A stretch of 64,000 nucleotides of DNA, from assembly GCA_965178125.1 (NCBI GenBank), contig OZ237741.1, positions 744,001 to 808,000 of the forward strand, written 5' to 3'. Below are positions 1-63,425 of the stretch, piece after piece (positions within the stretch are counted from its first letter, which is position 1; each line of letters starts with the position of its first letter). Position numbers and translations under genes: made by a program. The notes under the pieces were generated by a model. That model made no database searches and was not told the origin of the DNA. It was given only the letters and a program-made list of their open reading frames with translations. Origin of the DNA: Bilabrum cf. latius. Its lineage: Eukaryota.

Positions 1-2
1 CC

Positions 3-6000: not shown

Positions 6001-6131
6001 TGGACGGGATGCTGCCCAAGAGCGCCACTTGCTTCTTCCGACTGAAGCTGCCCGAGTATTCATCAAAGGAAGTTCTCAAAGAGCGCATGCTGAACGCGCT
6101 TGCCGAGACTGATACAATGGATGACGAGTGA
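3..6131 (+). CDS. HECT-type E3 ubiquitin ligase with LamG/concanavalin-like and SPRY domains; 5'-truncated, >2040 aa, read with TAG=Gln
   Basis: ORF-track pieces 48, 246, 945, 1272, 2229, 2844, 3168 and 3807 share one frame, separated only by 11 TAG codons (237, 918, 1206, 1947, 2073, 2178, 2820, 3159, 3636, 3759, 3780); ends TGA. LamG-like (WVHLAVV..YANG, YWKLEEG), SPRY-like (GVHYWEV, GDRIGVLLNMDEG), HECT (DQGGPYR; LPKSATCFFRLKLPEYSS with catalytic Cys). Confidence 0.9.
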
Positions 6132-6277
6132 TTGGTTTGATGAAAAGTACACACTATTTAGCTATCAGACCGTTTCGCATTAAACATAATTTGCCAGCGA
6201 AACACGACCGCGTCGTTTTTGGCTGGTAGTGAAGCTGGCATTATTGGTTTGATTAGCTGAGAAATACCTTGCTCACA

Positions 6278-8038
6278 ATGGCGATGAGCATGGGAAAGAT
6301 TGCAGCCGCCCCTGGCGGCGTCAAATCCAAGAAAGGAAAAGCGAAGAAGACTGGCCTTACGCTGGGGGAATTTCTCGACCGGGGTGACTTTACCGGCGCT
6401 GTGGCGCTACTAGAGTTCAAGATCCGGACCGGCGACACGGATGAGACCACGTTGCCTTGGCTTGCGTACTGTGCGTTCCACCGGGGCGACTACAAGAAAG
6501 CCTTGAGCGTTTACGAGCAGATCGAGAAGGCAGGTGATTCCACACCGGAGCTTGGCGTGTACAAAGCTTGTAGTTTATTCTATTTAGGCCGGTTTGCAGA
6601 GGCAGAAGAACTGTTGGCGGCAGCACCGAGCGCTGACCTCCGAAACCGGGTGATGTTCCATATTGCAAACAGAGTTGGGGACGAGGATCTGCTTCGAGAG
6701 CGGCATGGCACTCTCCGATTAACGACTGAGGACCAGCTTGCGCTTGCTGCCGTGCATTATCAGCGCGAGCACTACCAGCAGGCCACCGACGTGTACAAAC
6801 GGCTCCTCTTGGAAAACCCGAGCAGCGTGGCACTCAACGTTTACATCGCCATGTGCTACTACAAGCTAGATTATTACGACGTATCACTAGAAATTCTTGG
6901 CACGTACCTGGAGCATTTTCCCCGGTCGGCGGTGGCCATCAACTTGAAGGCTTGCAACCACTACAAGATGTACAATGGGAAGAGCGCCGAGGCGGACCTA
7001 AAGGAGCTTGGGGGAGACGTCGCGGCACAGCTGGGACTGAGAGGAGCAGGAGCAGGCAGTGGGGCAGGCAGCGCTGTCAGTGGAGCGGGGGCCGGCGGGA
7101 GCTCCGCTGCCGCCGCCGCCACCAACATGCTGGAGGAGAGCGATCTGATCCGGCACAATCTCGTCGTGTTTAGGGGGGGTGAGGGGGCAGTGAGGGTGCT
7201 CAAGCCACTGGCCGCGCACCTGTCCGAGGCTCGCCTGAACCTTTGCGTGTACCACCTGCGCCAGGGGGACGTCAAGTCGGCCCAGCGCGTCATTGAGGAG
7301 AAGGTGGCCACCACCGTGCCCGAGTTCCAGCTGGCGGGTGTGATTCATTCGGAGCTCGGCCAGAGGAACGGCAGCAAAGAGGACCTGCAGAAGGCCCAGC
7401 AGTATTTTCAGAGGGTAGGCATGTCGCCCGAGGACAAGGACACGATCTCCGGAAGGCAGTGCGCAGCCAGCCTCTACATCCTCATGCGGGACTTCTACAA
7501 TGCAAACATATACCTGGAGAGCATAAAGTCGTTCATGTACAACGACGACACCTTCAACTGGAACTACGGGATCGCACAGGCCGCAGAGGGGCACTACCTC
7601 GAGGCGGAGCAGAGCCTGCAGCGGATCACTGACCCCTCCATGACCCAGGACTTCGTGTACCTCAGCTGGCTGGCACGGTGCTTCATCATGAACGGTAAGG
7701 CCAAGCTCGCCTGGGAGCTGTACCTCCGCCTCGAGAGCACCAATGCAGACGCGCTGAGTCTCCTGCAGCTCATCGCCGCGGATAGCTACAAGATGGGCGC
7801 TTTCCTGGTGGCAGCCAAGGCCTTTGACGTGTTGGAGAAGATCGACCCCGACCCAGAGTATTGGGAGGGCAAGCGGGGTGCATGTGTTGGGGTGTTCCAG
7901 CTCGTGTGCGCGGAGCAAGAACCGGTGGAGAGTCTGAGAGAGGTGTTCGACATGCTGTCGACGACAGCCAACCCGCAGCAGAAGCACATCGTGGAGGTAA
8001 TCCGGCAGTATGCCGAGTCGCAGGGTTGGCCTTTGTGA
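6278..8038 (+). CDS. IFT56: Intraflagellar transport protein 56 (TTC26), 586 aa
   Basis: Single exon, no TAG, ends TGA. Characteristic motifs ALNVYIAMCYYKLDYYDVS, NLKACN, LIRHNLVVF, YWEGKRGACVGVFQ. Confidence 0.95.
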   Translation: MAMSMGKIAAAPGGVKSKKGKAKKTGLTLGEFLDRGDFTGAVALLEFKIRTGDTDETTLPWLAYCAFHRGDYKKALSVYEQIEKAGDSTPELGVYKACSLFYLGRFAEAEELLAAAPSADLRNRVMFHIANRVGDEDLLRERHGTLRLTTEDQLALAAVHYQREHYQQATDVYKRLLLENPSSVALNVYIAMCYYKLDYYDVSLEILGTYLEHFPRSAVAINLKACNHYKMYNGKSAEADLKELGGDVAAQLGLRGAGAGSGAGSAVSGAGAGGSSAAAAATNMLEESDLIRHNLVVFRGGEGAVRVLKPLAAHLSEARLNLCVYHLRQGDVKSAQRVIEEKVATTVPEFQLAGVIHSELGQRNGSKEDLQKAQQYFQRVGMSPEDKDTISGRQCAASLYILMRDFYNANIYLESIKSFMYNDDTFNWNYGIAQAAEGHYLEAEQSLQRITDPSMTQDFVYLSWLARCFIMNGKAKLAWELYLRLESTNADALSLLQLIAADSYKMGAFLVAAKAFDVLEKIDPDPEYWEGKRGACVGVFQLVCAEQEPVESLREVFDMLSTTANPQQKHIVEVIRQYAESQGWPL

Positions 8039-8405
8039 CGTGGACTTGTTCAGGTATGGTACTGATTTCGTTTAATCGCTGGTTGCCGCTATCGCGTTGA
8101 GCTGCTCAACTTGAATAACCAGAATAACCCAGAATAACCAGAATAATTTGTAGGGTAAAGAAACCACACAAAGTAATGTGCAACCACGAATGGCTGTCAC
8201 ACCCCCAAGGTGGGGCCATCAAAGATGACCTCAGAGAACAACGCGATCAAAAGACCCGCAGCCCCCCCCTAGAGCAAAGGCCAAAGCCTCAAAAGAAAGC
8301 AAAAGAAAGCCCGACTGAAGCCAAGCGGTAGCGTGTACATTTTAAAACTCGGAGTATAGCCAGCACACCTTAGCAGTCAACTAGACGCTCACTCAATCAG
8401 GCTGC

Positions 8406-10119
8406 ATGTCAAAGGCTGGTCCTTCCTGTTTTATTTTGATAGGATGTCTTGTTTTCTCGCACGCAATACGACTCAGAAGCTAGAGGCAGATCTCAATAAG
8501 CAATGAGGCTGTCCGAGAACCTTCAATTTACTAGTAAGCCAATCTAAATGAAGTATCAGTGCTTACGCATCCTGCTTGGCAAGTCTGTGCGTATGGATTT
8601 CTAGTCTCTTGCCGCAGGATTCCTCTTGTGAAATCTGTTGTGACCTAGAGGCGTCGTCAGGTACTGCTGCAGGAGCTCAGGTTCAGGGAGAGAGCTAGCG
8701 GCCATCATGCTTCAATGTCGAGCTCCACAGTTGAAATGTCTCACAAATAGTAGCATTCATCATCTGGCGCGTCCCAAGTGGCCTCTACTGCGGGAAAAGG
8801 CCAGCAAACGAGCATGCAGGAAATCGCTCTGACGCAATAGATGTAAGGTATATCCAGTCTTAAATTCGTCCTGACTAGCTTGATGCATGCGACCTAGCTG
8901 CAAAATGCAAATATTGTAGGGCTACATTCACCGCAGATTGTCCCAGAAGCGCTTGGCGACATACTACGGACAGATCACCATTGGCACCGGCTCTGGGGCA
9001 AGACCATTCAAGGTGCTCTTCGACACTGGTTCCTGCGAGTTCTGGGTGCCGTCTTCGGCGTGCCACACGGAATCTTGCAAAGGCCATCACGGTTTTGATC
9101 CCTAGCTGGACGAGTCCCCGGAGCAGGACACGGTGGTTCCCGCCGAGGTCCGAGACAAGCTGATGAGCGTGCAGTACCTGTCCGGCAAGATCGCTGGCAC
9201 GCTTGTCGCCAGCGACGTGCAAATTGCCAATCTCGTGGTGGACGACTAGATCTTCGAGATCGCCACGGAAGTCGACGTGCCTCTGCTCAGCTAGGTGGAG
9301 TGGGACGGTATCCTTGGGTTCGCCTATGGCTCCGAGCAGATGCTCAAGCAGGGCGTGCTCCCTTTCTTCGACTCCATCATGAAGCAGAGACTCCTGCACA
9401 GCAACGTATTCGGGTACTCGATCGGGCCATAGGGAGGCGCCATGTCCATAGGCGGCGTGGACTGGTCTCTAGTGGCGGGGGTGGAGCAGGGCGGGCCATA
9501 CGTCAAGAGCATGGAGGGCGAGGGGTCTCCGTTCCAGTGGGCGAAAGTGGTGAATCTGGGGTACTGGACCGTGGGTCTGCTGGACATCGAGCTGGTGTAT
9601 CCTGCGGGAGAGACGGTCAGCACTGGCGTGTGCGGGGGCGAGAAGGATGGCATGTGCCGTGGGATCGTGGACACCGGCACGTACCTCGTGTATGGGCCCA
9701 GGCAGCACGTGGCAGGCCCACTGAGGGACCTGCAGGGCACTGGGTGCAACGGGTTCGGCGGGCTGCCCTCCGTGGTGTTTGTGCTGCAGGGGTCAGACGG
9801 GCCCGACTCCAAGGTCCGCGTGAGGCTGGAGCCGAGGCAGTACTCGCTCATCTTCCACGTGCCCGCGGAGGGAGTGGATGACCAGGAGTGCGACGAGGCC
9901 ATGAAGCAGCATCCCGATGGGAAGGGCATCGACAGCGGCAGGTGCCCCAAGGAGTGCGTCACCGGCATCGCACCGGACGATGACGTCATATGGACATTCG
10001 GACAGGTCATGCTGCGGTCGTTCTACACGGTGTTCGATCGTGACCAGAACCGGATCGGGCTGGCCCTTGCACAGGGCATCCGCGACGAGAGCGGCAAGGT
10101 GCGCGAGCTGATTGCGTGA
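8406..10119 (+). CDS. Pepsin-family (A1) aspartic protease precursor, about 511 aa; exons 8406-8533, 8618-8842, 8937-10119
   Basis: Hydrophobic N-terminus, YYGQITIG, catalytic FDTGS and IVDTGT, DGILGFAY, FYTVFDRDQNRIGLA. GT-AG introns of 84 and 94 nt restore the frame; 10 in-frame TAG; ends TGA. Confidence 0.9.
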
Positions 10120-10372: not shown

Positions 10373-10981
10373 TCAGCGATGTCCCTGCTCGGTGAGCATC
10401 AGACCAAACAGTGCAAGTATTCCCAAGCCCAAGATGCTGAAGCCCATGACATTGGTTGTCTGCATGACCGAGATGTCTGTCTGCATGACCGAGATGTCTT
10501 TCTGCATGACCGAGATGTCTTTCTGCATGACCGAGATGTTTTTCTGCATGACCGAGACATATTTCTCGACGCGAACGAGCCTGACGTTGAACTCATGGAA
10601 TTCTTTTTGCATAGCTGTGATCTTCTAGTCTAAACCTTTAAGTAGACTGTTGGAGTGCCCCCACAGTGCAAACACTCCAGTCATTGCCGCAGTGCCGACG
10701 CCGCCGATGGCTATCGCAATCCAGGACATGTCGAATCCACCTGCCACTGAAGTTGCCTTCTGCCACCGTACTGATGTAGACCTCCTTTTAGGTGGCCAGT
10801 GGTCCTTCCCGAACCTCAACCTCCTTTTCGGTCCTGCTCTGCCCGCTTGGAAGCTTACCGATAGCATCCGGGATTGACTGCGCCTTCCTGCACGACCGGG
10901 AGACAGCCAGCCCGTTTTGTTTCCAATAACGGTAGCAATTGATTTGATTGTATGCGGTGCTGCTTGAGCGAATCGTCTCAT
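10373..10981 (-). CDS. Small membrane-anchored coiled-coil protein (TM, heptad repeat, TM); start uncertain
   Basis: ORFs 10625-11065 and 10373-10612 are in one frame joined by a single TAG (10625-10627). Hydrophobic segments WIAIAIGGVGTAAMTGVFALWG and VMGFSILGLGILALFGLML flank (MQKDISV)n heptads; ends TGA. Confidence 0.65.
10458..10562. repeat. Coding tandem repeat, 5 x 21 bp
   Basis: TGCATGACCGAGA recurs at 10461, 10482, 10503, 10524 and 10545; encodes heptads on the minus strand. Confidence 0.95.
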
Positions 10982-11169
10982 CGTCGAAAGTCGCTCGAGA
11001 ATTCTGACGAGTCGAGCGCAGGCAACAGGCCACCACCACAGCATTGTAGCGAGCGACTTCAGCATCTGCCGGCGATCTGATAATTCCGAATTTATGCACT
11101 CGCTTCCACTCCCCTAATTTCATATAGAATCCAAGCCCTCATCCGCAAGTTGGAGGTCTACCATAACTC

Positions 11170-14100
11170 ATGTCGGAAAAAAGAAGTGTATTCGATATTG
11201 CGCATGCGGCCTTCTATAATACCCTGAGCGTTGTCAGCAAGGAGGCCGAGGACGCTGGGACGTTCAGCTTCGTAGCAGGAGTGGTTCTCAACACGATGCA
11301 GATCCTGGCATTTCCATTCGGGAGCTCCTCTCCGCTACAAGCAACCGCGCTGGTAGATGCAATGGGCCCGTGAGATTGCCGTATTCGACAAGTGCTGCTT
11401 CTTGAATGGACTCGTCTCGGAGAAGCATCCCATTGAAATCAAACCGATTATGTGCCGACTGCTTCGCTCCATTGACCGTTAAAGCCTAAAGTCGCAAATG
11501 AAAATTGGCATTTATTTAAGTTCGTGTCGCAGATTGCTCCAGGTGCTCACACTCTCCAAGCTGGACGAGCTGCTGTCGCCGATCGCGAATCGAGTGCTCC
11601 TCGCAATTGGCGCCTCGTGGGTTTCCCTCTTCGTCCTGGGGTACTTTGTCGTTTTCATGCAATTTATTTATGAGGTGCCATAGTCCAAGTTTCTGCTTGG
11701 ACTGCTCCGCCGCGTCGGTATGCTCAACGCTTCGGTAAGATATCCAAACGGCATGGTCCTCATCGATAGCTGACCTTCTGGCCTACACATCGCGGCATGC
11801 CCGATTGTTAGAACCCAACACATGCTTGCAGGTCCTGTATCTACCTGTGGCGGGGCTTCTACTGCGCTCAACAAGCTGCGGCCCCGACGACAGGCCGCCG
11901 GCCACCCCCGAAGGACACCTCACCCCGCGCGTGTGGATGGGCACCTCAATGGAATGCGGTGGGAGCCAGCACATGGCTATCGCAGGCATCTGTCTGACAG
12001 TGCTGCTGCTCCTTTCAATCATCTGCCTCACGCTGGTAATGACGGCGGCGCAGCGCTCCCCCGTCTCTCGTTCCTGGCTCGCCAAGGTCTCCGGGCGCTC
12101 CGACGTTGTCTTCGTCCTTGGCAAGCTCATGCTTGCCATTTTTGCAAATACGATTACCGGACCGTCATTCCGAAGTAGTTGGATCTCGCATGTGCCCATC
12201 TTGCTGCTGGCGATGGCATGGTTTGCTGGCAGCCTCATCTACCAGCCCTACCAGCACACCGAGGCCAACGCAGCCGTGGTGGCCGGCTTCTCCACCTTTC
12301 TCTTCGCAGAAATCTGCACGAACGCTGCGTTGGTATGGCCAGACTACGAATGGTCTGCCGCAATTGTCATCGGATGCAGCTTGTCGGCCATTTTGGGATA
12401 CATGGCGTCGACGGCTCGCAACGACTCGATCGTGTAGGGTCGAGTGGACGATGTCAGCACCCCGCATGAGATGCAGATCTGGATTCGGCACCAGCTACAG
12501 GTGGCTGGAGGTATCCGAAATGTGCCTCCCCGAGCGGATTTGCCCCCCGCGGGCTCGGTGTCTTGGGGGGGCGACTCAGACGATGCCATGCTGGTGCCGC
12601 AGGCTTCGCAGTTCTCCGTTCTGGACCCGGGCGCTGGCGCTTTCGCCCCTCAGGCTGGAAGCAGAAAGAAGGGGAGAAAGAATCGACGCACAGCCAAAGT
12701 AGCACCAGCTGACTATGCGCAGGCGCTGCCCCTGTCCGCTCGAAGCAGAGGTTCAGGTGGATACGGAGGGGCGCGGCGAATGGGAGGCACGCTCCTCTCT
12801 ATCGCCGAGCATCACGTTGGTCTTGGCAGCCCTGCCTCATCAACTCCAATCCGGACGGGTGGGAAGCACTAGGATGGCACGCGAGGCCAGTACAGAGGCG
12901 CTAGTACGTGGGCAGGCTCCAGCGTTGGTGGTGCGTCGGTTGACACGCAGCAGAGGCGGGAGGCGCTCCGCCTCGCCCTTGAGGGCACCTCTCGACTGGC
13001 AGAGCTGCACTCCCGCTCTCCTGCCGCCATGATCATGTGCTCCGTTGTGTATCGCGAGTTCTCGTGGGGCACCAAGTACCAGGAAGCGCAGTTCTTGGCC
13101 CGGGCGCTCGCCTCCTCCCCGTAGGTGGACTAGAGCTTCTACGCCCTGGAGCAGATCGAGAGGATTCGGGAGGAGCTGTCGGGACCCAGGGGAGGCAGGA
13201 ACAAGGGGTAGGGTGGGGGCGCTTCCATGGCCTCGGGCGTACCCGCGCAGAATGTTGCACGCCTCACAGCCATCGATCGAGTCCTGGTGGAGCAAAAGCA
13301 GAGGGAGGTGGCATCCCTCCAGGTTGAGGCCAAGCGAGCGGCTGTGGCGCTATGGGACGTTGTGGGCGATCACAGCCCAGACCTGGCAAGGCTGCAGGCT
13401 GCAAGCTCGGACACCACGGGGGCAGATCAGCGGCTGCGGGACCTGTTTGAGGAGCTGCTGGAGCTGCAGCCTACCTCCTCAAGCATGCTACGGCAGTATG
13501 CGGGCTACCTGTAGTCTTCTGGCAGGGCGGCCGACCAGCGGGTGCAGGATCTATTGAGCAAAGCGGACCGGCTGGACGAGTCTTCTTCTCACAGGATCCA
13601 CAAGGTGGAGCGCGCTTTTGTTTTCGGGTAGAGGCTGCCAGAGGCGCTGCAGAGCGTGGCAGACGATACGACAGCTGTGGCCACGCTGTCCGGTGACGTG
13701 GCGTAGTGGGGCGAGATCGTGAGTGCCTCGCAATCATTCTGCACCCTGCTTGGGGTGCAGCCGCACATGCTGGTGGGACACCCTTCTTCCAACCTCCTAC
13801 CCTCCCCACTGGACGAGATAGAGGGTGGGGTGCTGGCGGGGGTGGTGCGCGTAGAACTGGATTAGATTGCGTTGGCAGCGGATGTAGACAAAGGACTGGC
13901 ATGGCAGAGGAGTGGGGATGGTGATGGGGAGGCGCAGGGTCTGATGGTAGAAGGAGGAGCCGCTCCCAGAAGCGGTGGTCGTCTGTCTGTTTACAGGGGG
14001 GTTGGTAGAGGCAATAGCCTAGCAAGCCGCATCATGGGGCCTCGGTACGGCATGGTGATGCGCGCAGGAGGTGACATTCTCCCCGTTCGGATGCAGCTGT

Positions 14101-17100
14101 CAGAAGCTCCTCCCCAGCCCAGGACGGGCGCTCCCCGCTTTGCTCTGGTCGTGGAGAAGTGCATGACGACAGAGGCGCTCGTGCTGGTAGACGAAGCCTC
14201 GGGAAGGGTGAGGTCGGGGACTGCAGGGGCACTGGACGCTATGGGAGTATCACCTCTCTAGCTGCGAAGCGAAACATGTCGGATCCAAGACGTTATTAAG
14301 TGCTTCTAGCGGGTCGAGAGGCGAGCAGGTGCGGCTTAGGTAGCATTGTACGGGATGCACGGAAGGGAGGTGGGACTTGGGTCTTCAGGAATGGTGCGAC
14401 TAACGCTGCCACAGCTTCGGTAGGCAATGGAGCTGGCCAGTGGTTGGCCTGTCTATGGGGGCGATACGGCGAGGATGGTGGGCAGTCAAGGCAGACATGA
14501 GACCCAAGTGAGGTATGATCGAGATACTGAGGGAATGAACGCCATCGACTAGTCCGAGGAGGGCCACAGCACTGCCGACTCGCAGGCAAGCAATAGCAGC
14601 AGCAACAGCAGGAGCAGCAGCGAGGGCCAAGTCCAGAAGTCAAAAACTCGCGCTGTCCGTAGTACTCCAAGCCTTGCACGGAAGCTAAAGCAGTCTAAGC
14701 GCAAGTTTTAGAGTGGGTCAATTGATGCCTCTCGAGACAAGAAGGCAGCAAAGAAGGGGCGCGTGCTACCTCGCCTGGCGACCAGAATTTTTGGTGGCTA
14801 CAGAGGCGGGCAAGGCCTAGCTAGGATCGCGTCCCGGGCGTCCAGTGTGAGCGGCCTATCATCATCCCAGCCGGCAGTTGAGATCGACACTCCTAGGAGC
14901 ATGCTGAGCATGGTGGGTATGTGCGGGGTTGTGGTGATGGACATGGCCAGCAGTCGAGAACTGGTGCTGATGAGGGTGCAGAGGTGCAGGAGGCATGGAG
15001 TCGGGTTTGTTTTGGTCGGGTGGACCGTGTTGGATCCGCCACTGGACCATGTCGTTGACCTCTAGGCGACTCGCAGTGGCACTCTGAGTGACGCAGGGGC
15101 GAGCGTATCCAACGATGATGCTTCTAGCGTTGATAGAGCTCGTGCTGACAAGGCTGTCAACGCAAGATAGGTTCAAGGGGCGCCAAAGATCGTAGGATCA
15201 GCACCTCCAGTGACTGCTGCAGTTTCGTCGAGAGCAGGCGTTGTTCCAGCCCGAAGCGACAGCACCCCAGCAGGAGCATTGCCAAGTCATATTGAGCCTG
15301 AGGGTCCAATTGACAGTCACCATAGTGATCAATAGGGTCTTCATGAGGTAAGGCAGAGCCATGAGCGCCCCTCCTCTGGTAGCAGCGACCTTTTGAGAGG
15401 CCTTGGTGAGGCTGCATCCACTTCCCCTCATAGGCAAGGACGCAGCCGAAGCTCCAGCATTGCCCTCGACCCGAAGGGACTGGACCCGGCGGCGTCACTC
15501 CCTACGGCTGCCCTGTTGCAAAATGTAGATTCATCGAGCGATGTATCACCGACTGACGAAGGTGCCACAGCAGCTTCGGCAGCACCAGCGCCAGGGCATG
15601 ATGCCACCCAAGGGTCGACTATTGCAGCGGAAGGCTCCTCCCGGGCGTCTTCTACAGCTTTGTTGGGGCAGCAAACACCTAAAGGTGGTCAGACACGGGA
15701 GCGGTTGCGGGTCGGGTCGCAACCAAGGAATGCAAGGAGCAAGCAGCCGCTGAGCTCCCGCCATGATTCATCATTCAACTCCATGTCAGGGTCGCAAAGA
15801 GGGTCAAGGCAGTCTATGGGTGGAGTTTGGGGTAGAAATGCGGCCAAACAAGCGGCGAAGAACCAGATTGGGGGAAAGAGTCGCAGTAGAGGCGTCGGAG
15901 GTCGGACAGAGCGAGAGGAACGCGGAAGGAGCGGGATCCAGCGGCATGACACCGGCAGATCGAAGGCCACCACCATGGGAGGTGGAGGCTCCGTGACGGA
16001 AAGCGGGTCTGTCAACAGCAGCGGGTCTGCCAACTCGGCAAGCCACATGCTAGGAGAGGCTCTGAAGCTCACCACGGCAGCAGATGAGGTAGAAGTGCGC
16101 ATCGTGAGACGCACAACTCTGGGGCTGGCTCTGGCCATCATTGCCATGACAGTCGTGATGGCCCTATTGGTGGACGGGGGAACCCGGAGATTGCAGCGAC
16201 TGAGCCATTTGACTTATCTGTCTGGTCAGAGAGGTGTTCTGTACGAAGCAGCCACTGCCTGGATCGAAGCAGCCGTCATCGTGAACCAGCACCAGGAGCT
16301 TAACATGTCCCTGGCAGATGCCCAGAGCATGCTGGGCTCCGTGCCATTCCTCTAGCAGCAGATGCGGAGGGATGCGCAGCGCTTTCAGGACACCCATGAG
16401 GCTCTCTACAGTGACACGATGCCCGAGGCAGCAGCAGCGCGAGCATGGTCTTCGGAGGTGCCACACGTCTTCGTCGAATTGCGACTTGAGGATGTGTAGC
16501 CATATTATTACGGGGCTTACGGTGAGTCCGTGGGGGATGTTGTAGAAATACTGATAAAGAAAGGGATTGTGCAAGCGCCGGGGGAAGAAGACCTCCCCGA
16601 CCTGCCGGACCGATTGCTGGCTGGAGACGTGTCAGCCAAGCTGAGAAGCAACTACAGGCTGGCGCAGCAGGTAGAGGCCGTCGCTCCTGAGATCCAGTTC
16701 CAGCCCATGCCTCTGACGGAGATGGCAGAACACACGAGCAACACCATCGCCCGTATCGCCGCTATGGACCCCTCCATGATCCGCAGGGGCTAGAGGGAGG
16801 TGGAGGACTACTTCTCGAACGAGGATGCCATGTCTGGGGCAACCACGGCTGCAACGGCACTGTACGAAGTGGCTTTCCTTGAGCAGTTTCAGGTGCTGCA
16901 AAGGCAGGTATTGTACTCTGGCCTTGCGTTCATTGGTGCGACCATTTTGCTGTGCGGGTTGTTTTTTACGTATTCCGTCAGGTCTCTGGGGTACCGAACT
17001 TGGCTGTTGCTGCGGGCGGTGCTGATGGTGCCTCGCAAGATCGCAAGGATCATTCGGCAAGAGGCGCAAAAGGACTTAGACCAGCTGCTGGAAGAGTCGC

Positions 17101-42728: not shown

Positions 42729-42829
42729 CGCTATTTCGCTGTGGAAGTGAAACTAGGATTCGCGGCGGGCTCGATTGCGAACGGTGCTGGAGGAAAACAA
42801 GCATTCGGCTCGCGCCACACACAGCCCGT

Positions 42830-48489: not shown

Positions 48490-48626
48490 CCACTCGCTGC
48501 CGGATGTGCTTGTAGTGAATGAACTGCGCCAGACCTGAATTGCACAAGAAGTATCCCAGTCCATGCCTATCTCGGATTCTGCTCAAATCCATAGAAACTA
48601 TCCGGATCAGATTCGGATAGATTTGG

Positions 48627-51600: not shown

Positions 51601-52760
51601 TTGGCTCGCTTACCGAACCGCAAAGTCGACAGGCTCTCCATCTCGTTGTACGAGGAGGGCGAGCAGCAGATGATCAGGCTGGTCCGACTATTGCCGCCGA
51701 TGGACTCCTGCAGGACGCGTGTCAGCTTCGAGTCGCGGTAGGGGATGTGGGAGCTCCGCCCGTCTGTGAGGGCGTTGATCACATTGCCCAGGGCACTGAG
51801 GCTCCTGTTAATGTTCTGGGCCTCCTCCATCTGCTTGCCGGTGACGCCCGTCTTCTTGGCCATCTCACTGCCGGCCAGGTCGACAAGCACGAGCCTTGAT
51901 CTCTTGACCTCGCCCGACTCCGTGTTGGTCTGCGTGATGTTAATGCTGAACAGGCTGTGGGACCTGCTGCTGCCTTCGTTCATCCCCGTCGCGGCAACTG
52001 CCCTGTTGGAGTCCCCCTGCTGCATCACCATGAGCATCTCTTCGGCCGAAATCACAGAGACGGTGGTTGCGTCTTGCACGTAGACGCCGAGCTTCGGATC
52101 CTCGCGGACCGGCAGGTTGGTCTTACTAGAATCCAGAAGATCGCGGATTTTTTCGAGGTAGATCTCCACAAAGCTGCACTCGACGCTGAACTCGATACTC
52201 TCATCGGCCTCCATCGCATGCGTGAAGACGTCCTGAGCCACGCGAGGGATGACACCCTGCATGTCTGAATCCGAAGTATCTGGACCAGACATTGTGTGGC
52301 TCTTGCCTGCTCCCGTTTGACCGTACGCAAGCACGCAGCCATTGTAGCCTTGAAATACAGCATCGACCACAGGTTTGGCTGAAGAAGCATACACGTCCAG
52401 CTATGTTGACTCAGATGGGAACACTCGGTCAAAATTGAACTTATACTAGGCCTTGTCCAGTGTCTGCAATACATTAAAGTAGCATCTCGCTGTGTCCGGG
52501 TGTGCACGAACCGTTGCAGATCGCGGAGACGTTGGTCGATCAAATCAAAAACTCACATTCAGGACCACTTGCTGGTGATTTCCCTTCGGCATGTAGACGC
52601 ATGTCTTTGCAGATAACTTCAATTCTTTTTTGTTCAATGGCCTGAATCGGCAAGTCACGGCAATACGATCGCCGATGCCAGCTTTGCTTGGTGTTCCGTC
52701 GCCGCTGTCCTCTCCCATTGGCTTGCGCGGAGTCGAGCTCCCTGCGCCTGACGCCGCCAT
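48627..52760 (-). CDS. Kinesin (kinesin-1-like motor) with coiled coil, DysF/peroxin-ferlin-like domain and ankyrin repeats, about 1346 aa; exons 52557-52760, 48627-52463
   Basis: AYGQTGAGKS, SSRSH, LVDLAGSE, HIPYRDSKLTR; Trp-rich LPDGWHWLCEW..DKHGWEF..VRRRKWIR; ankyrin TPLHYAA. 93-nt intron; 10 TAG; ends TGA. Confidence 0.9.
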
Positions 52761-52942
52761 ATATTACTCTACCTTACACGATGGCTGCAGCAATTAGCGG
52801 AAGGTGTCCTTGCGGGCGATGATTTGATTGTTTCTTATTTATTCCAAACATCCAAATGTACACTCAACAATAATAGACAGGCAAGTGCACCGCATTGCCA
52901 CATGCAACCTAGACGGGACACAATTCCCCACCTTCTAATGAT

Positions 52943-55585
52943 ATGTTGCCGTCTGCCGGTTTCCTACCGCTACTAAAGCCTCGGGGGTTGACTTCGCGCG
53001 CGCTGCTCAACCAGGCAATCAGGTAGCTTCGGCTTCGCGAATGTCGCATCAAACTGGGTCATACTGGGACGCTAGATGCATTCGCTGAAGGTTTACTCGT
53101 AGCTGCGGTGGGCCATGGAACGAAACAGATTGATTCCATCAATCTTGGTGGTGCGGCAGGCAAGGAGTACCTTGCGACGGTGCGGCTTGGGATTCGGACT
53201 TCAACCGATGACGTGTGCGGGGACACGTTGATGCACACACCTGTCCAGGGAATTTCTGAGAGCGATATTTCGTCTGCTTTGTCAGAAATAGGCAATGGTT
53301 TCGTTTTCTAGGAGCCGCCTAAATTTTCTGCCCTGAAAGTGAAAGGCGAGCGGGCGTACAACTTGGCAAGGGCCGGCAAACAGCTGCCCGAGTCGATGGA
53401 GAAGCGCCGCGTGCTCATCGAAAATATCGCCGTGCTTGACTACACTTCTCCTGGTTCATCGCACTCGAGCGTTCCACCGCTAGAGCAGTGGGAGGCGGAG
53501 TGTCGGACCCAGCTGGAGGCCACCAAGGGCAAGCTGTGCCCCGGCGTGGCCGCTTCGTTCGGGGAACAGTCTGGTTGCATGGATGCGGTGCTGCGGGTCC
53601 AATGCGGGCGGGGCGTGTACGTGCGATCGATTGCAAGGGATATTGGGGAGATTTTAGGCGTCGGTGGGTGCTTGGTTCGGCTGGTCCGGACGAAGTCTGA
53701 CGGTTTCAGCCTATCCGATGCGGTGCGGCTGGACGACTTGTCGAGTACAGACACGATGTTCGAGGCAATGGCACCACCGGGACTTCCTTTCTTACACTCA
53801 TCAAAAGCGTCTACGAGTGTAGATGTTGATGATAATGCTGCCATTCTGGAGCTGCTTGGGCGTCCGTAGCACCCCTCGAGTAGCTCTGCCGATATTGCTG
53901 GGCCTTCCGAGTATGTGGCGCTGTACGATGAGGCGAGCATATCTTAGCGGGTGACGACTGGCTATCATGCAACGAGGCATGCGTCGTATGGGCTCCGCGT
54001 GCAGCAGATGCGCGATGCAGGTGCAGGTGCAGGTGCAGGTGCAGGTGCAGGTGCAGGTGCAGGTGCAGGTGCAGGCGCAGGTGCAGGTGCAGGTGCAGGT
54101 GCAGGTGCAGGCGCAGGCGCAGGTGCAGGTGCAGGTGCAGGCGCGAGCAGCTAGTCAGCGGACAACAGTGGCAGTTGTCATGTGACGAGTGGGATCGTGA
54201 TACCGCTTCGGGTACACCGCGTGGTGGCTCCACTCTTGAATCCCAACAATGGAATGTGGTCGGCCTCCGCTGCGGGCCAGACCTTACAGCAAGCAAAGCG
54301 TAGTACCGCCTCTAGCTCTGAAGATGGCATGGACCAGCTATAGCTCATGGACGAATGTACGGAACGACGACGCAAGCTGTTTAGATTGATGTCTCGCGGT
54401 CGTATCAAGCAGAGCGGGCTGGTGGGCCTGGTGCAGCAAGGGCAGGAGCAGGTCAGCATGGTTTCATCCTTCTTGTAGCAGCTGCCAAAGCACAGCAAGA
54501 AGGATGGTGCGGGTGATGGGGGCAAGTCTGGCACACGTGTCCGTCGCAGTGAGGGTAGCAGCGCAGGTGGCTGCGCATCGAAGCCTGTACCCATCTTTGG
54601 GAGATTTCAAGCTCAAAGTTTGGGCGATGGCAATGGCGATGATGCCTCGCCTAGCAAGCCTAGTGAAGATGGGGCAGATGAGCCCACGCTCCGGTTGCTC
54701 GCATCGTCCACGACGGAAATGCATCGATTGGCTTGGGGAGCCCAGCAAGTGATCGAGCGCAAGCTGGCGAAGTTTCTCAAGCCGCACGCCGGCCAGGACG
54801 GTAGCAAGCCGGGGCCCGCCGGAGCGCCTGCTCCGGAAGACGTGGCCACCAGCGTTGCGGAGTCTTTGCACGCTGTCGTGATGCGAGTAGTGATGTAGGG
54901 CATTGCAGCAGGCGTGCATGTGCCTGACTCTGGTGTCAGTGATGGCGGTGACGGCTGTGCAGAGACGGACGAAAATAGCCTGGAAGCGCAGGGAGCGTGC
55001 CCCTTACTTCCAACAGATGAGATAGTGATGAAAGCGCTTCCAATCGCTGGGTTGGATCGAGACTCTGAGCTCACGTGGAGCTTGCTCAAGCGTGCAGATG
55101 CATCAGTGAGCCGTGCTATCGTGGAGGTGAACAGCCGGTGGAGGCGAGGCTTCGGAGGCAGTCTGGCGGATGCAACTCGTTACCCCCTCCTGGCAGTAGG
55201 GGTGCACGAGCTATAGCCTGGGGAGAATGAATGTGGCTCGAGTGCGGAGTTAGACGAGTTGCGTCTGGCGCACCTGTCGGGACAGCTGGGTGCAGCGGGG
55301 CAGTGGGTCAGCCCGCAGCAAGCTAGGATGCACCGGCGAGGCAAGGGCAAGGGCAAGGGACGGAAGGGCGCGGCATTGCGCAGGGCAGGCAAGAACTCGG
55401 ATTTGGTGCTAGGCGATGGGGAAGAGCCCCTAGCGGCTGCACTGTGGGCCTGGCTGCATGCACCGCTCAAGGAGGCCATCGGCACGGTAGCTGGCATGGC
55501 GGGACATCTAGCGCAGCTGGAGTATAGCGAGGGCGTGCGCCGAGCAAAGTTGATGGAAAGGCTGAAGGCTGATGCGAAGCCGTGA
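52943..55585 (+). CDS. truB: tRNA pseudouridine-55 synthase TruB-like with long C-terminal extension, 880 aa
   Basis: KPRGLTS, KLGHTGTLD (catalytic Asp), KEYLATVRLG, [TAG]EPPKFSALKVKGERAY, CGRGVYVRSIARDIG, LVRT. 9 TAG; first non-TAG stop is the TGA ending at 55585. Confidence 0.85.
54017..54142 (+). repeat. Hexanucleotide microsatellite (GCAGGY)n, about 21 units, in frame as (Ala-Gly)n
   Basis: Directly visible. Confidence 0.97.
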
Positions 55586-55752
55586 TGCTATAGTTCAGCA
55601 GCTGAACTGAAGGTGTGTTGTCTGCTTCGTTTTCGGACCTTTCCCGGTGCATTTAAACCGGAAACCGTTTCATGACGACGAAGACGCGAAAGAACAGCAG
55701 TTGTGTCTCATTCGTCCAAGGCTATTGTCTCGGATAGGTAGTTATTTAAGAT

Positions 55753-58700
55753 ATGGAAGAAGCTGCAAGGGTGCGCCGAGAGGCAGTCCAGCAGCAATGC
55801 AACGACATAATGCAAGAATCTCAGCAAAGCAAGGCGCGGCTGGATGGATTCATTGAAGCCATTAACAGGATGTTTAACGTGTGGCGATAGAATCTAGAAG
55901 TACTCGCAGCATCTCCAGCTGATACCACTGCCTCAGCAACTATGCTGAGCACATCAATGGCTGGCGGAATACAGCAGATCGGCCAGCGAGTCCCAGCCGA
56001 GAAAACTATTCTCGATGACATGGAAAATCGGCTTCGGATCCTCTTAACCCAACCTGGGGCCGTAGCAAGTGACTCGCTATCTGGGGCATTTGTTGATACA
56101 TCTAGCTCAACGTCAACGATTGGCGCACTGCAAGATTCACAAGCACTCGCGGCCAGGACTAGAGCGGCCGCAGAGGCGAGGCGCAAGGGCAAAGACTCCA
56201 ACGAGCTGTTGCAGTCGAATGTTGATAAAGCTCGCAATACATTGGATAGTGCCTGGGAGTCATTTAGATGCTATAAAAAGCTTGTCGATGCGGTGAAAGA
56301 GGATCCATCCCGCCCACCACCGATACCAGACGCAGAGGATACTACTGCGAAGTCAAACTCTGCAGCAAGCGGGGCCCCAGTTTCACCGTCATCTGCATCA
56401 GATCAAGAGGTTGCTCCAGCAGGCGCCTCCTCTGCAGGAAGCGCGCTGGCAGAGGGCGCAGCCGGGACACAGGCGGGTGGTGCTGGCACTTCCGCCGCAG
56501 AGCAAGCTGTCGCCGCCAAAGAAGAGATCCAGCGGCAGCTGCTGCGTGCTTCCGTGTAGTCTAAAGGAGTGGAGGTTCGAGAGCGTATCGCAGCAGCCAG
56601 GGCTCGTCGGATGGAGCGCAAGGCAGAACGGATCGAGCGCAAGGCGGCCAGATAGGCGGTGAAGACGTGCACCACGATGCCGACGGTGGCGGGTGCAGGA
56701 CTCGAGGGAACCGAAATGCCCGCTGCTGCAGCGACAGCACGATCAGAAGCTGCCTCAAGCTTGGCACCAGCGCCAGCATCGGCTCCCGCTCCCGCTCCCG
56801 CTCCCGCTCCCGCTCCCGCTCCCTCAGCGGCTTCCTTTGCCTCGACCAGCCCCGCAGACGAGGCGCTGGGAACCGCGGTGCAAGAGGCCGGAGCTCTGGG
56901 AGCCTATGGGGTGATCGATGAGTCACCTGCACAGAGTACTCCTGGGCCCACGGTGGCAGAGGCCTACGGCAGCATCGATGGTGGAGAAGGAGCGGCGCAA
57001 GGCGGGGCGTCCTCATCCGGCGCAGCAACTTCGCATGGAGGAGTGGTCGGCGCAGCGACGTACGAGCCACTGGTTGGTGCCGAGGCCGGTATTCAAGAGC
57101 ATCCTGTGAAAGGCATGACATCGGCTGGGATCAGCTATGCCTACGAAGTCTTCGAGGAGGAGGACCCCACGGTGCTGCGGAAAGCTCCTGATGACCCGGT
57201 AGCAGCTGTTGCTGTATCACGCGGACAGGCCGCCAAGGTCGCGAGCGGGTACGATGACGCTATTGATGACCCCAGTGATTCAGCTGTAGTACAGGCGGGT
57301 GCTGTGCGAGTCGGTGGGTATGACGCAATCGACATCATTGACGGCAGCGTGCAGCATGCTGGCCTCTCGTCTGCTCGTGCATGCGACCCTATCCCATCCG
57401 CAGCTAAAGCAGACCCCTCATCCGGTTCCGGTCCTTCTGCAGATTCAACTCCATCGAGAGCAGTCGGTGCATCGCAAGGCCGGGAGGGTTTCAACGAGAA
57501 ATGGTAGAGGGTGATCGACAGGGATGTCACCACACCCGCAGAGCAGCTGGCGCAGGCAGTCGACTTGCACAAGCTCGCGGTGAGCTTCACGGACCGGGCG
57601 CGATTTCTAGCAGAGCTCATCGCTGCGGAGCGCACCATGTACGAGGACCAGAGGAGCATCAGGGCGCTGAATGTTGGTGGTGTGGCTGGAGGTGACAAGC
57701 ACCTAGTTGGGTCCGTGTTCATCAAGTATGCGGTGGACAGCGATGGCCTCTATGGAGGTGATGCTCCTGCTCAGAAGAGCGCTGCTCACGAGTTGAAGGG
57801 CCTGCGAGCCATTCGAACTGCAGTGGCCAGGTCGCAGCGAGCCTAGCCCGGAACTGCAGAGTGGGAGCACCCCGACTGCCAAGGCAAGCGCACGGGCAGG
57901 CGAAACCTGGCCAAGGAGCTGCACGTGCCGCTGTTCGCGCTGGTAGATTTTGCGGGGCACCGGCTCGTTGCTACTGCGCTGCTGCCGGTGGGCAAAAACA
58001 CTCTCGTCTACGGCTCTGCAGATGCCGGCCGCACCGTCCACAGCGATGATCCAGTGGCTGCAGATGCCATGCAGCAGGCAGGCTCACTGCTCGGGCTGAA
58101 GCCGCACGTTGTCGGGAGCGGGGTCGGACAACTCGGAGCCAAAGAGCTGGCTGCGTGCTGTGACATTGAGGTGCACAAGGGCAAGGATGACAGGCTGTAC
58201 GTGCTCGACACAGCTCGCCTTCTGCCCCCCGAGGAGCCCCACAGGGAAGTGTCGAGTGTGGTCGTGCCGAGCGATCCCTGGCGGTCTCTCGCCTAGCATC
58301 GCGGGCACAGGACCACAAGGATGCAAGTCGCAGCGCAGGCACTCGCCGACTCTGCAGACCCCGTGGAAGACGATGATGACTTTGGGCTCAGCGAAAGCAC
58401 CAGCGAGCCGAAGATGCCCATGATACAGGCGTACAAAATGACTGGCAGGTGGTCCGGCGTCACTTTGCTCCGCCAGGGCACGGGCGGGAAGCCCAACCAT
58501 CGTCTGACTGACATTCTCGCCAACTAGCCCGCATGGCATGCCACCGCTCGCCGCCTCATTGCGAATGGCCGGGTCCAGGAGTCCGACATTTTTGCTCCTC
58601 CGGGTGCCAAGATTGGGCAGTACCCCGCTGGCGGCATGGTGACTGGGAGCGCGGTGCTCGTGGGCAGCGACGACAAGGCAAGGCACCTGGTACGGCTGAT

Positions 58701-61700
58701 TCGGGAGGAGGCGCTGCGGGTGTGGACGAGGCCAATCTCGTCGGATGCATTCACCGGGTTTGGCATCCACAACCACAGGATTCACAACGCCGAGGCTCGG
58801 GGCCTATCGCAAGCCCTCATTGAGGAAAGGATCCCTGTCTTCGCGAATGAGCTGGCCACCCACAAGAAGGACGTGACCAATGGCAGGCAGCTTGTCGACC
58901 TCATGCATGCTGCTGGGCTGAACGTGCGCTGGATCGCTCTCGTGTATATGGCAACGATGGTAAACGTCAAGAGGCTGAGGCAGAGCTCGTCATCGTTGTC
59001 CAGCGATGGGTTCGTGGCGAATCTTCTCTTGACTGAGATGATCTCGCGCTCGATCAAATTAATCATTCGAGATGTAATGCGAGAAGCATTGCCCAAGGCA
59101 GTAGCGCCTGCCACTTCTGCTGGCGATGCACCGCCAAGCCTACGTCGGCATGTCTCCATGAATACATAGGCTGGGCACTGCCAGACTCGTCTGCAGGAAG
59201 TCATTTGTGAGGTACTCAACGACGTCTTTGGCAACAGCGAGCGATCACTAAGCATGTGGACCTCCTAGCTCAAGGCCCAGATGATGCTGCGCTTCGGCTC
59301 CTACCGTATGCCTTCGCATTGGTTTCATGACGGCTCCATGGCTCGGTACGGCGAGACGATTTTCTTCTCTTCGCAGCATTCCCACCCGCATGACGACATG
59401 CGTGGCAGGGTGCTGCTGCCAGCCCTGCTTGGCTCCACAATGCGTGCCACTGGCGTCGCGCTGAAGCCAGCTATATACGCAAGGGCGATCCAAGATCCTG
59501 GTGCGTTCTTCTCGAGACCGACCCCTTTTACGCTGGATGATTTCGACTGCGTTTCTTCCAAGTCAAAGTCTATTCAAACGGCAGACAGTGTGCTCGAGGC
59601 TCTCAAGGCGGTCACCGGTGTCACCAATACTCTCAGCGAGGACATCAGTACCGCTAGCTCCGGCACCAACGTGCCTGCGCTTAAGTCGCTGATGGCTCAG
59701 ACAGGCGCAAAACTCAACATGCGGGATGAAGGGGACAAAATGCTTGCACAAATTCCCATGCCATACACCGTGAAGCCGTCCGTGTCGGCCAAAGAACTTG
59801 CCGCTGATGCTCCCATCGAGAAGCCGACATCTGCCGCTGGTGGCCAGCTGCCCGAGTCGGAAGCGCCAGCTTGGCAGCAGTACAGCCATATGTGCTAGGA
59901 TGTGTTTGGCTCAGAGTCGCAGGAGGCAGTGGCTGCCGGGCTGCGTCACTCTGAGGAGCTCTTCAGAGAGGGCCGGTCGATGGCCGCATGTGCCGTGGCT
60001 GAAAGGGCGGCTGCACCCGTGCTCAGCAACCCCAGTGCACCAACCGAGAGTGTAGTATCTATTTTGGCCTGGATTGCTCGGTGCAAAGAGCAGTCTTGCC
60101 TGCTGGGCGATGCACTCGAACGCTACCAGCATGCGCTGTGGCGGCTCCGATGCGAGTACGGGACCGGTTCAGTCAAGCAACAGCACTCAGTCAAGGAGAA
60201 ACAGATGACCCCAGATCCCAGCGATATCCCAGAAGAGTACAGGGATAAGTCATTTGATATTCACAAGTATTATGCCGAAGCGCAGCAGTTGAAAGATGAA
60301 GCGTAGAAGGGGCTGACCCCGCGCGATCCCCGGTGGAAGAACGCCATTGTCAAGCTGCAAGAAGACATGGCAATGATCAAGGAGAGACAACGGAATTTTA
60401 TGGTGACGCAAAAGCATATTAAACCCAGGGAGCACGCCGCGACGACGGGGTTTATGGCGCATCCCGCGCAGCAGGTCCTGGTAGAGTCGGTGGTTCGACT
60501 GTATCTTAAGGCTGGCCTCCTCTCGCAGCACCAGGCAAACGCCAACAAGTACAAGTTTGCGCTCAGCAAGCTTCCATCCCCTATAGACAAGCAGGTGCTA
60601 GGAATCGTGTACCAGGTTCCCCACGAGCTCATGCGAGCTGCCCTTCCGCTGAGCGCTCTGGAGGTGAGGGTCTTTGACACGCCTAGAGCCGCGTACAATC
60701 ACAGGGGTCCGAGACCAAAATGGCACGACGGGGACACGTACAGCAGCATTATGGTGATCAACGCGGCCAAGAGCCGCGGCGTGGATCCTGTGATCCAGCC
60801 CGCCAGTGCGGCCCCGCTGAGCGCCAGAGATGCTACAATTCGAGCGTAGCGCCAGCACCCTGTGTTCGGAGCCATCGAGGCTGGCACGCATGACCTTCCG
60901 TGCCAGGAGCGTACCGTCCTTGAACTGAAGCGGCGCCTAGATATGGCTGGACCAGATTTGCTAGAACGCATGGCAAGCCGCCCGCTGAGCTCATGGAACC
61001 TGGCCTCCAAGATCACCTCAAGCAAACTTGAAACGATCAGGCGCGCTGGCAAAAGCTCAGCTACAACGAGTGAGTATGTGGACAGCAGAGCCAGAGCGCA
61101 ATGGATCTTCAGCGTGGCTCCTCTATTGGTACCATCGTGCATGATCATGCGGCAGCCGCTCCCACAACCACGCGCCTCTCAGCCGCCGAGCCTACAGCGT
61201 GACGCCTCCCACGGGGAGGACGTTTCCCACGTTGGATTCCCCGCCAGTAGAGAGGAGCAGCCAGATGTCAGTACCAGCGAAGATGCTCAGCACCCACAGG
61301 TTGCACAGGATCGTTCCTCACAGGCTGTTCCACTGCTAGACCCAACTCAGTTCGTAGAGCTGCCTCGCTCTGCACCACCGGCACCACTGCCGCCGGTAGC
61401 ACCATCACCATCAGCCCAACAGTCCCCATTCGGCGGTCAGGTAGCGCCGAACCAACTGCCTGGTGTCCCTGATGAGCCTGCCAGCGGTGCCGGCACTTCG
61501 GCGGCGTCCTCAGGGTAGGATGCCGCCAGGTTGGTCGAGTCCAATAGATCGCATGGTATAGCCACTCCGGGACTCCCGAGCTCGGCGGCCCCGCCTCCTG
61601 TGGGTCAGACACCGCCGACAGCGGCCCAGAAGATGATCGCGGAGCGACGGCAGGCTGTCCTGGCAAAGGTAGCCGAGCAGAAGAGAAAGGTAGCCGCGGC

Positions 61701-62100
61701 CAAGGCCAAACAGCCCTTTTTCCGATGCGACCAGCACTCTAAGTCCCCACATGACGGCGTTGTCAGGTATCACATTGCATGGGACATCAGCACAATCAAG
61801 TCGCCCACAGCACCGTGCAGTCCAGTCGGGGACGCGTGGATTCGATTCAGCAGGATCAGGCCGCTGATGCTGACTTGCAAGCAGCAGCTACCGCCCGATG
61901 CAGGCCGAATGATGGTGCGGCTCCCCGATGGTGGCTTGTTCGAGATCTTCAAGACCGACTAGCGAGACACCAAGGACTTCAGGATGAGCACGTTCCACCG
62001 CTTCGGGATCTAGATCATCGCGTATGCCAAAAGAGACAAGCGCTGTCTCCCCGCTCTGCAGGCTTTACTGCTCGGGATTCAGGGGTCGCATATGCAGTGA
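55753..62100 (+). CDS. CLU (clustered mitochondria)-domain protein with CLU-central, TPR-like and putative C-terminal PX-like region, about 2115 aa
   Basis: FNEKW[TAG], GGVAGGDK, AQKSAAHELKGL, PLFALVDFAGHRL, DIEVHKGKDDRLYVLDTARLLPPE, ISSDAFTGF, MHAAGLNVR. One frame across 15 TAG; ends TGA. Confidence 0.85.
56782..56823 (+). repeat. (GCTCCC)n microsatellite, in frame as (Ala-Pro)n
   Basis: Directly visible. Confidence 0.9.
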
Positions 62101-62399
62101 GGCTTGCGCACGCAGTACTTGCACAACGGCGAGCACTGCGTCATTCGGATCAAGCACGATCACGCCTCTCACGCGGTGCTAGACTCTCCTGTGGTAGTGC
62201 CCCTGTTAGGTCTAGATTGGATGCTTGATGAACAGTACACAATAAAGGATGCTTGCGCGTTAGAATGGCTTTAGTAATATCCATTTTGTACTGGTGCATC
62301 CAACATGGAGCACCGGCCCCTCAAATTCTGCTGACCACCACAGCCCGCACACATGCCTCTGTGGGGTGCCGTTCGGAGCCCAGCCGGCATTTAACGACC

Positions 62400-63425
62400 T
62401 CACTGCCTGCCATGTAATGCTGCATTAATTACATCGTCGATCTGGCGCTGCGCCGCATCGAGCTCTGTGACCTGCTGCGCCCCGCTATCGGCCAACCCGA
62501 TGCTGCTAGATTCCTGCGCCGCTCGCTAAGTCAGGGCACGGCGGTACTGGTTGGAGAGTTCGATGGCTTGTTCTTCCTCTAGAACGTCGTATATGTCGAT
62601 ACACTTGTGTAAGGGGTGCCTCCCACGGGAGAAGCCGGGGCTAGTGGCGTTCCATGGCCACTCCTAGTCCCGTGCTGTTGCCAGGCGCAAGCACACTGCA
62701 GCGGAAACGGCGGGATGCAGCAGCTTCGACTCGCTGTGCATCTCTTGGAACATCCTAGCGGTGCCTTTGTCCTGCCTGGGATCTTCTCGCACGGCGCGCT
62801 GCATGTCAGTGTCAAGCGGCCCCGGGGAAAACGAGAGAAACCTCGTCGAGTGACCGGGGCGCTCCGACCAGACCGCTGCCTCAGCGGCTGCACAATCCAA
62901 AGCAGCAACCCTAGCAGCTTTTCCTGCTGAGTAAATGCTCCATGATGGAAATAGTGCTGGTTGCTCTGCAGCAAGGGAGCTCACATTCACCACTGTAGTT
63001 CGCACAGACTAGCTTTGCCTACTTGCAAGCTTTTGAGAGGTAGACACAACCCCACCGACCAATTGAATAAAACTCCCTACATTAACTCCGAACTACTCGT
63101 CGATATCGCGCCTTGCCAACTCAGTGATCTTACCAATTGGCTAGATGGAGCCATGGTTGAGGATTGCAAGTAAGTCAAGGACATCTGCTGGATTCGAGCT
63201 CATCACTCTTGCTTGAAAACTATCAAGCACTTCCTTGACATGTGCGTCACTACTTAAATCCCCAACCAAAGTGATAGCGTTGTGAAAATCACAAACTGTG
63301 CCTGATGTACGACCAAGGTGCGCCATCGCACATGCTGAGTTCAACAGGTGCTAGAATTGCACCAAAATTTCCTTTCCATACCCTCTCCCGCAACCAGTCA
63401 GTAGACCAAATATATTTTTATTCAT
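62400..63425 (-). CDS. Sepiapterin reductase-like short-chain dehydrogenase/reductase, 341 aa
   Basis: LTGCGRGYG, ILNHGS, VVNVSSLAA, YSAGKAAR (YxxxK), SPGPLDTDMQ; 6 TAG; ends TGA. Confidence 0.88.

Follow-up and report, generated by a model that had tools for sequence, protein, structure and literature searches.

UAG as a glutamine codon kept apart from UAA in a GC-rich nuclear contig of Bilabrum cf. latius

A nuclear genetic code that splits UAG from UAA was thought impossible until 2017; a handful of lineages with such a split are now known, and UAA terminates translation in all of them. The decoupling has been in print since that year for several lineages (PMC5304391; PMC11687900). In Iotanema spirale (Fornicata), UAG encodes glutamine (Gln), and 104 of 119 genes end in UAA and 15 in UGA (Panek et al. 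2017, PMC5304391). The ciliates Hartmannula sinica, Trochilia petrani and Protocruzia tuzeti also read UAG, without UAA, as Gln (McGowan et al. 2024, PMC11687900); UGA is their least used stop, and UAA was the preferred stop codon of every species in that study. UAG alone has been reassigned to other residues as well, to leucine (Leu) in the rhizarian exLh and an uncultivated phyllopharyngean and to serine (Ser) in Scotinosphaera (PMC5304391, PMC11687900). The code in which UAA and UAG (UAR) both mean Gln, NCBI table 6, is used by many ciliates, hexamitin diplomonads, some ulvophytes, Streblomastix and Amoeboaphelidium protococcarum (PMC11687900, PMC5304391). NCBI table 15 ('Blepharisma macronuclear') gives TAG as Gln with TAA and TGA as stops, and according to PMC5304391 its attribution to Blepharisma was an error. 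Here we analysed the codon usage of a 64,000-nucleotide stretch of Bilabrum cf. latius DNA (GenBank assembly GCA_965178125.1, contig OZ237741.1, positions 744,001 to 808,000), hereafter the window. Its 21 gene models with a visible 3' end contained 18,215 sense codons, in which TAG occurred in frame 110 times and TAA and TGA never, and all 21 genes terminated in TGA. We are nearly certain that UAG is read as Gln in this DNA, that UAA is not a sense codon and that UGA is the main stop. The window is nuclear DNA of a GC-rich, intron-poor eukaryote with a variant genetic code.

Iotanema and the window are alike in that UAG alone was converted to Gln, UAA carries no amino acid and genes ending in UAG were not seen; the same machinery, a tRNA-Gln with a CUA anticodon and an altered eRF1, would serve both. 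However, most Iotanema genes end in UAA and every window gene ended in TGA. Iotanema is also an anaerobic flagellate of the gut, known through its transcriptome, whereas the window is a GC-rich genomic contig with a gene for OvoA (5-histidylcysteine sulfoxide synthase and methyltransferase) and a mitochondrial CLU (clustered mitochondria)-like gene. OvoA chemistry needs oxygen. The two organisms are probably unrelated. The ciliates that read only UAG as Gln share that assignment with the window, but they favour UAA and use UGA least, whereas the window relied on UGA and was a 64-kb multi-gene stretch of 60% GC with GT..AG introns of about 93 bases. The table 6 code agrees with the window in reading TAG as Gln and in TGA being the sole stop seen (21 of 21, a window-sized sample); by contrast, that code also reads TAA in frame, and the window had no in-frame TAA against 18-32 expected. 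The exLh, phyllopharyngean and Scotinosphaera codes likewise decouple UAG from UAA, with Leu or Ser as the amino acid there and Gln here. On paper, table 15 is the table of the window if UAA is a stop here, which gives it a label and not a lineage. The code is of a known kind (UAG alone as Gln), in a lineage that is apparently undescribed, and its avoidance of UAA is unusual and possibly complete. No paper describing a GC-rich non-ciliate with UAG as Gln and UGA stops was found in the incomplete literature searched. As a candidate identity for the window, Amoeboaphelidium, an algal-culture pest with a reported UAR=Gln code (PMC6299283), was rejected on base composition, its genomes having about 40% GC (PMC10608142) against 60% here.

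The GC content of the window was 60% overall and ranged from 55 to 64% along the 64 kb. Its eukaryotic genes were densely packed on both strands and nearly intron-free, with two short GT..AG introns, both near 5' ends. The final set of 21 models comprised 16 long open reading frames (ORFs), of which 12 carried Pfam domains, two small genes accepted on their conservation in a related metagenome contig (L001), and three additions matched by Pfam (EF-hand, ankyrin, and ING/PHD, the last under Pfam's own cut-offs). The TAG, TAA and TGA tally refers to this set, and the counts of codon pairs and the TAA expectation given below refer to an 18-model set. The earlier note on this DNA had stated that TGA ends every one of the 21 genes whose 3' end is visible, and the same 21 genes were recovered. 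The 14 stops that it named, at 6129, 8036, 10117, 18717, 33777, 48487, 55583 and 62098 on the plus strand and at 10373, 19796, 25153, 38404, 48627 and 62400 on the minus strand, were all TGA ends of long ORFs. Its further statements, that TAA appears in neither role and that CAA and TAG are common, held in the counts: TAA was found at none of the 18,215 sense positions and at none of the 21 ends, 160 CAA stood beside 598 CAG in the 18-model set, and the 21 models held 110 TAG. TAG made up about 12.5% of all Gln codons. Within TGA-bounded ORFs, in-frame TAA lay solely upstream of the first ATG or within the GTAAGT of an intron in the topoisomerase III-alpha (Top3) gene. The only ORFs of the window that combined a positive coding score with a TAA end were two lying antisense to real genes, and none of the 21 genes required TAG as a stop.

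UAG was a regular Gln codon in the window. When the kinesin-1 gene (48627-52760, minus strand; 10 TAG) was aligned, the TAG at codon 48 of its ORF stood opposite Q in all four printed alignments, at a near-invariant Gln of the motor. One of the nine TAGs in the TruB pseudouridine synthase gene (52943-55585, plus strand) fell on the Q of the Q-x-P-P-x-x-S-A motif, which was also Q in four of four alignments. In the pepsin-type aspartyl protease gene (8887-10119, plus strand), one of five TAGs occupied a conserved Gln of the family; this position was Q in all four solved structures and in 118 of the 132 non-gap homologues obtained when 150 library representatives were aligned. One of the two TAGs in the Top3 gene (45111-48489, plus strand) aligned with K in TOP3A and Q in TOP3B. 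Reading frames stayed open and conserved beyond the TAGs in kinesin, in TruB and in the OvoA gene of L001. As judged from these alignments, the conserved positions indicate Gln at TAG, not Leu or Ser.

The A-ending and G-ending members of codon pairs were counted as CAA:CAG 160:598, GAA:GAG 252:864, AAA:AAG 157:586 and TTA:TTG 31:190. From the A/G ratios of these CAR, GAR, AAR and TTR codons, 17.6-31.5 in-frame TAA were expected if TAA were read like TAG, and none was observed (Poisson P(0) of 2e-8 to 2e-14). UAA is thus not a sense codon; the absence of TAA against 18-32 expected excludes the UAR=Gln code and shows that UAG and UAA are decoupled. The earlier note had argued that this is not the ciliate-type UAR=Gln code, and the reading of TAG as Gln together with this shortfall bears it out. 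The absence of TAA as a stop was assessed from base composition. Out-of-frame frequencies per 1000 positions were 2.64 for TAA, 7.0 for TAG and 14.4 for TGA, and at the corresponding TAA share of 15.5% (out-of-frame TAA:TGA) the probability of no TAA end was 0.048 for 18 genes and 0.025 for 22 genes. The 95% upper bound on genes ending in TAA was 15.3% with 18 genes and 12.7% with 22. The lack of sense TAA was therefore far beyond chance and the lack of TAA stops moderately so. The preference for TGA may be compositional, because four of four non-overlapping long ORFs also ended in TGA in a standard-code, GC-rich control contig (L002). This fits the proposal of the earlier note that high GC partly explains the preference for TGA, and its description of UAA as a rarely used or avoided stop is compatible with zero sense TAA and zero TAA ends among the 21 genes.

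A search for OvoA returned 17 loci, among which the metagenome contig L001 (positions 1-6418) was the sole close relative. Its OvoA was 82% identical to that of the window (38404-40623, minus strand) and its other genes were 58-81% identical, in the gene order of window positions 38404-45007 over four genes. All four L001 genes ended in TGA and none contained an in-frame TAA. In-frame TAG was present, with two in the OvoA gene, and the identity of OvoA held at 82% downstream of the first of them; the OvoA gene of the window contained no TAG. Six columns of the alignments held TAG in just one of the two species, and there the partner codon was CAG in two, GAG in two, TCC in one and CAT in one. 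The UAG code is thus common to at least two species, that of the window and that of L001. A 547-residue database fragment of the L001 OvoA (P0004) ended exactly at a TAG opposite a CAG of the window. Two Logan-derived database proteins, P0003 and P0124, were 98-99% identical to the OvoA (38407-40623) and IFT56 (6278-8035) of the window, which suggests a second allele or strain. P0124, the 99% identical IFT56 fragment, terminated right before a CAG-Gln codon of the window, a hint that this copy may have TAG in place of the CAG.

The in-frame use of TAG was confined to this close pair among the OvoA-bearing contigs compared. In-frame TAG was absent from the long ORFs of L002 (1-17959, GC 60.5%), from another OvoA-bearing eukaryote, and of L005 (1-12016, GC 75%), a eukaryote-like contig, and their OvoA proteins were 52-54% identical to that of the window. 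The UAG reassignment does not extend to these more distant holders of OvoA. The best named match of the window OvoA was from Cafeteria, at 53%. Named matches of IFT56 were all about 50% identical and a cluster search returned generic IFT56 clusters; in a quick, unfinished single-gene tree of 34 sequences hand-picked from 120 matches, the window and its relative stood alone on a long branch. The CLU-like region matched two weak relatives, and the HECT protein encoded at the start of the window had no match among the metagenome contigs or genome contigs searched.

Contigs of public sequencing runs allowed the TAG codons to be followed into RNA. Both introns had been predicted from sequence. The Top3 intron of 94 bases (45204-45297, plus strand, between exons 45111-45203 and 45298-48489) and the kinesin intron of 93 bases (52464-52556, minus strand, between exons 52760-52557 and 52463-48627) were skipped in the contigs of runs X5 and X6 and kept in those of X1 and X8. 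Of 45 TAG codons in positions 44000-63999, 33 lay under the listed contig pieces of X5 and 25 under those of X6, and no other letters were seen at these codons. The TAGs are thus carried in processed RNA, X5 and X6 being treated as transcripts solely from splicing. Contigs of X5 extended 128-169 bases beyond the TGA of TruB, of the CLU-like gene (55753-62100, plus strand; 15 TAG) and of the sepiapterin-reductase-like short-chain dehydrogenase (SDR) gene (62400-63425, minus strand; 341 codons).

We propose that a tRNA-Gln whose CUA anticodon differs from the normal CUG at a single base would pair with UAG and not with UAA. Since such a tRNA cannot pair with UAA, it would keep the two codons apart. 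The release factor eRF1 would no longer release at UAG, UAA would remain a legal though seldom used stop, the GC-rich composition would favour TGA, and genes formerly ended by TAG would now extend to the next stop. A tRNA restricted to CUA together with an eRF1 blind to UAG, both already suggested in the earlier note, is what is usually inferred for codes of this type (PMC5304391). Taken as a whole, with UAA retained as a rarely used stop, this account is probable, and it is favoured over one in which UAA is unassigned.

Several observations weigh against this account or its parts. Four of the five protease TAGs, all four aligned SDR TAGs and the one aligned TAG of the family X DNA polymerase (Pol X) fell in variable columns, and both OvoA TAGs of L001 were in variable columns of a wide family alignment. 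Two of the six codons facing TAG across species were GAG, which encodes glutamate. The window contained no eRF1 gene that we could see, and neither tRNA genes nor Rfam families were found in it by tRNA and Rfam scans; a scan of L001, L002 and L005 also returned no tRNA genes. No letter differences were reported in the four runs (X1, X5, X6 and X8), and contigs cannot reveal rare variants. None of the listed runs is recorded as RNA; X5 was labelled 'RNA? (probably DNA)' and X6 'RNA?', and the two spliced joints are the sole ground for regarding them as RNA. Further, with no TAA ends in the 21 window genes or the four L001 genes, the role of UAA as a stop is without an example; against the non-coding TAA share of 33% (TAA:TGA 1:2) this absence is significant, the probability of finding none being 0.0007 for 18 genes and 0.0001 for 22.

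These last figures are what the strongest competing account draws on. UAA could be unassigned, with an eRF1 that, like those of organisms with the UAR=Gln code, acts at UGA only and a sole suppressor-derived tRNA-Gln(CUA) that reads UAG, so that UAA is neither decoded nor released and has been purged from both roles, as its absence from the sense codons and stops of the window and from the stops of L001 would suggest. The window also differs in this respect from the UAG-only lineages in which UAA is the main stop, as described in PMC5304391 and PMC11687900. However, with TAA taken at the out-of-frame share of 15.5%, its absence among 18-22 stops is no stronger than P 0.05-0.025, and the control L002 made equally exclusive use of TGA under the standard code. 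In-frame TAA occurred downstream of the TGA in the 3' untranslated regions (UTRs) of the CD36-like gene (30138-33779, plus strand; at +5) and of the SDR gene (at +3), which is neutral toward this account. We regard a vacant UAA as rather unlikely. An ordinary ciliate-type code, with UAA and UAG both as Gln, UGA as the sole stop and TAA missing merely from high GC, would agree with TGA being the only stop seen and with TAG as Gln, and the bias in GC content at third codon positions (GC3) does depress all A-ending codons. Yet A-ending codons were well represented (CAA 160, GAA 252, AAA 157 and TTA 31) and predicted the in-frame TAAs that were missing (P below 3e-8), and the four L001 genes lacked in-frame TAA too, leaving this code very improbable.

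The ends of two genes bear on whether UAG might have a dual meaning, Gln inside genes and terminator near the 3' end of the mRNA, as in context-dependent codes of the Condylostoma and Blastocrithidia type. Two of the 21 genes, kinesin (48627-48635, minus strand) and a membrane protein with TmcB-type tetratricopeptide (TPR) repeats (18711-18719, plus strand), ended in TAG-NNN-TGA, with a single codon between the last TAG (48635-48633 and 18711-18713) and the TGA. The chance of two such TAGs was about 0.006-0.05, calculated post hoc with TAG taken to occur at 6.2 per 1000. The listed transcript-like contigs of kinesin also stopped just short of the TAG, at 48639 in X5 and 48645 in X6, but contig ends are not transcript ends. 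By contrast, the tails that followed the last TAG (28-83 codons before the TGA) looked coding in five of five testable genes, with log-likelihood ratios of +0.13 to +0.57 bits per codon and GC3 of 0.66-0.74, compared with -0.15 and 0.51 in the in-frame 3' UTR. TAG-NNN-TGA is equally expected from relics of old TAG stops that had a back-up stop, and the two ends are probably relics of this kind, backed by a close TGA; a residual terminator role for TAG at these ends may persist. As a general property of the code, dual meaning is improbable. The view that the in-frame TAGs are untranslated and reflect pseudogenes, assembly errors, RNA editing or small introns draws on nothing more than TAG being a stop in the standard code. 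It meets 110 TAG against no TAA and no TGA in 18,215 codons, frames that stayed open and conserved past the TAGs, identical letters in four runs with spliced contigs included, and the same usage in a second species, and we give it almost no credence.

This lineage stands opposite the known UAG-only lineages, in that it relies on UGA and no UAA was seen. Many genes of a GC-rich genome would be expected to have ended in UAG, making its reassignment costly. Public reads and RNA data make it testable whether eRF1 splits UAG from UAA or has dropped both, and the unassigned-codon stage of the codon-capture model and the fate of genes formerly ended by UAG become testable as well. Standard gene callers cut the proteins at every TAG, and databases hold the truncated pieces, such as the 547-residue OvoA fragment P0004. 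If UAA is unassigned, this code would represent a living intermediate between the standard code and the UAR=Gln code. No earlier nuclear code that pairs one working stop codon with a vacated one was found in the literature searched, and the TAG-x-TGA ends of kinesin and the TmcB-like gene would then be fossils of a recent switch.

The remaining genes were as follows. A HECT/SPRY/LamG E3 ligase gene with its 5' end cut by the start of the window (3-6131, plus strand) contained 11 in-frame TAGs and ended in the TGA at 6129-6131. It was followed by the gene for IFT56 (TTC26; 6278-8038, plus strand), which had no TAG. The 3' flank of IFT56 (8110-8150) held a short tandem repeat of CAGAATAAC-like units. 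A 230-codon ORF at 10373-11065 on the minus strand, with one TAG, matched no family; its coding score was weak and no homologue was found, making it the least certain gene of the 21. The gene for the membrane protein with TmcB-type TPR (11937-18719, plus strand) was 2260 codons long and contained 26 TAGs, and the protein kinase gene beyond it (19796-23878, minus strand) had three TAGs in 1360 codons. An EF-hand protein gene (24016-25020, plus strand) was identified by its Pfam match, the Pol X gene (25153-28374, minus strand) carried seven TAGs, and an ING/PHD-finger ORF (28797-29480, plus strand) was probably a last exon. The CD36-like membrane protein gene contained five TAGs. An ankyrin-repeat ORF matched by Pfam (33850-34437, minus strand) was a last exon, and a 633-codon gene without a family match (35833-37734, minus strand) had a high coding score and two TAGs.

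Beyond OvoA lay the other genes conserved in L001. A small gene at 41200-41706 on the minus strand was 81% identical to its L001 counterpart, and a leucine-rich-repeat gene (41982-42728, plus strand) was 67% identical and had a TAG opposite a CAG of L001. A 721-codon gene with no family match (42830-44995, minus strand) contained five TAGs, and its C-terminal part was 58% identical to L001.

TAG use was uneven among the window genes: OvoA and IFT56 had none and the kinase 3 in 1360 codons, but the TmcB-like gene (2260 codons) had 26 and the SDR gene (341 codons) had 6. TAG tended to be avoided by the best-conserved genes. Many window genes had long low-complexity inserts of Ala, Gly and Ser, and in-frame simple repeats encoded runs of Ala-Gly in TruB (54009-54151) and of Ala-Pro in the CLU-like gene (56767-56832). 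The kinesin had an unusual architecture, in which a kinesin-1 motor, which matched Neurospora kinesin at E 2e-114, and a long coiled coil were combined with a Pex24p-like stretch and, at the C-terminus, ankyrin repeats. The stop codons of Top3 and kinesin were convergent and 137 bases apart.

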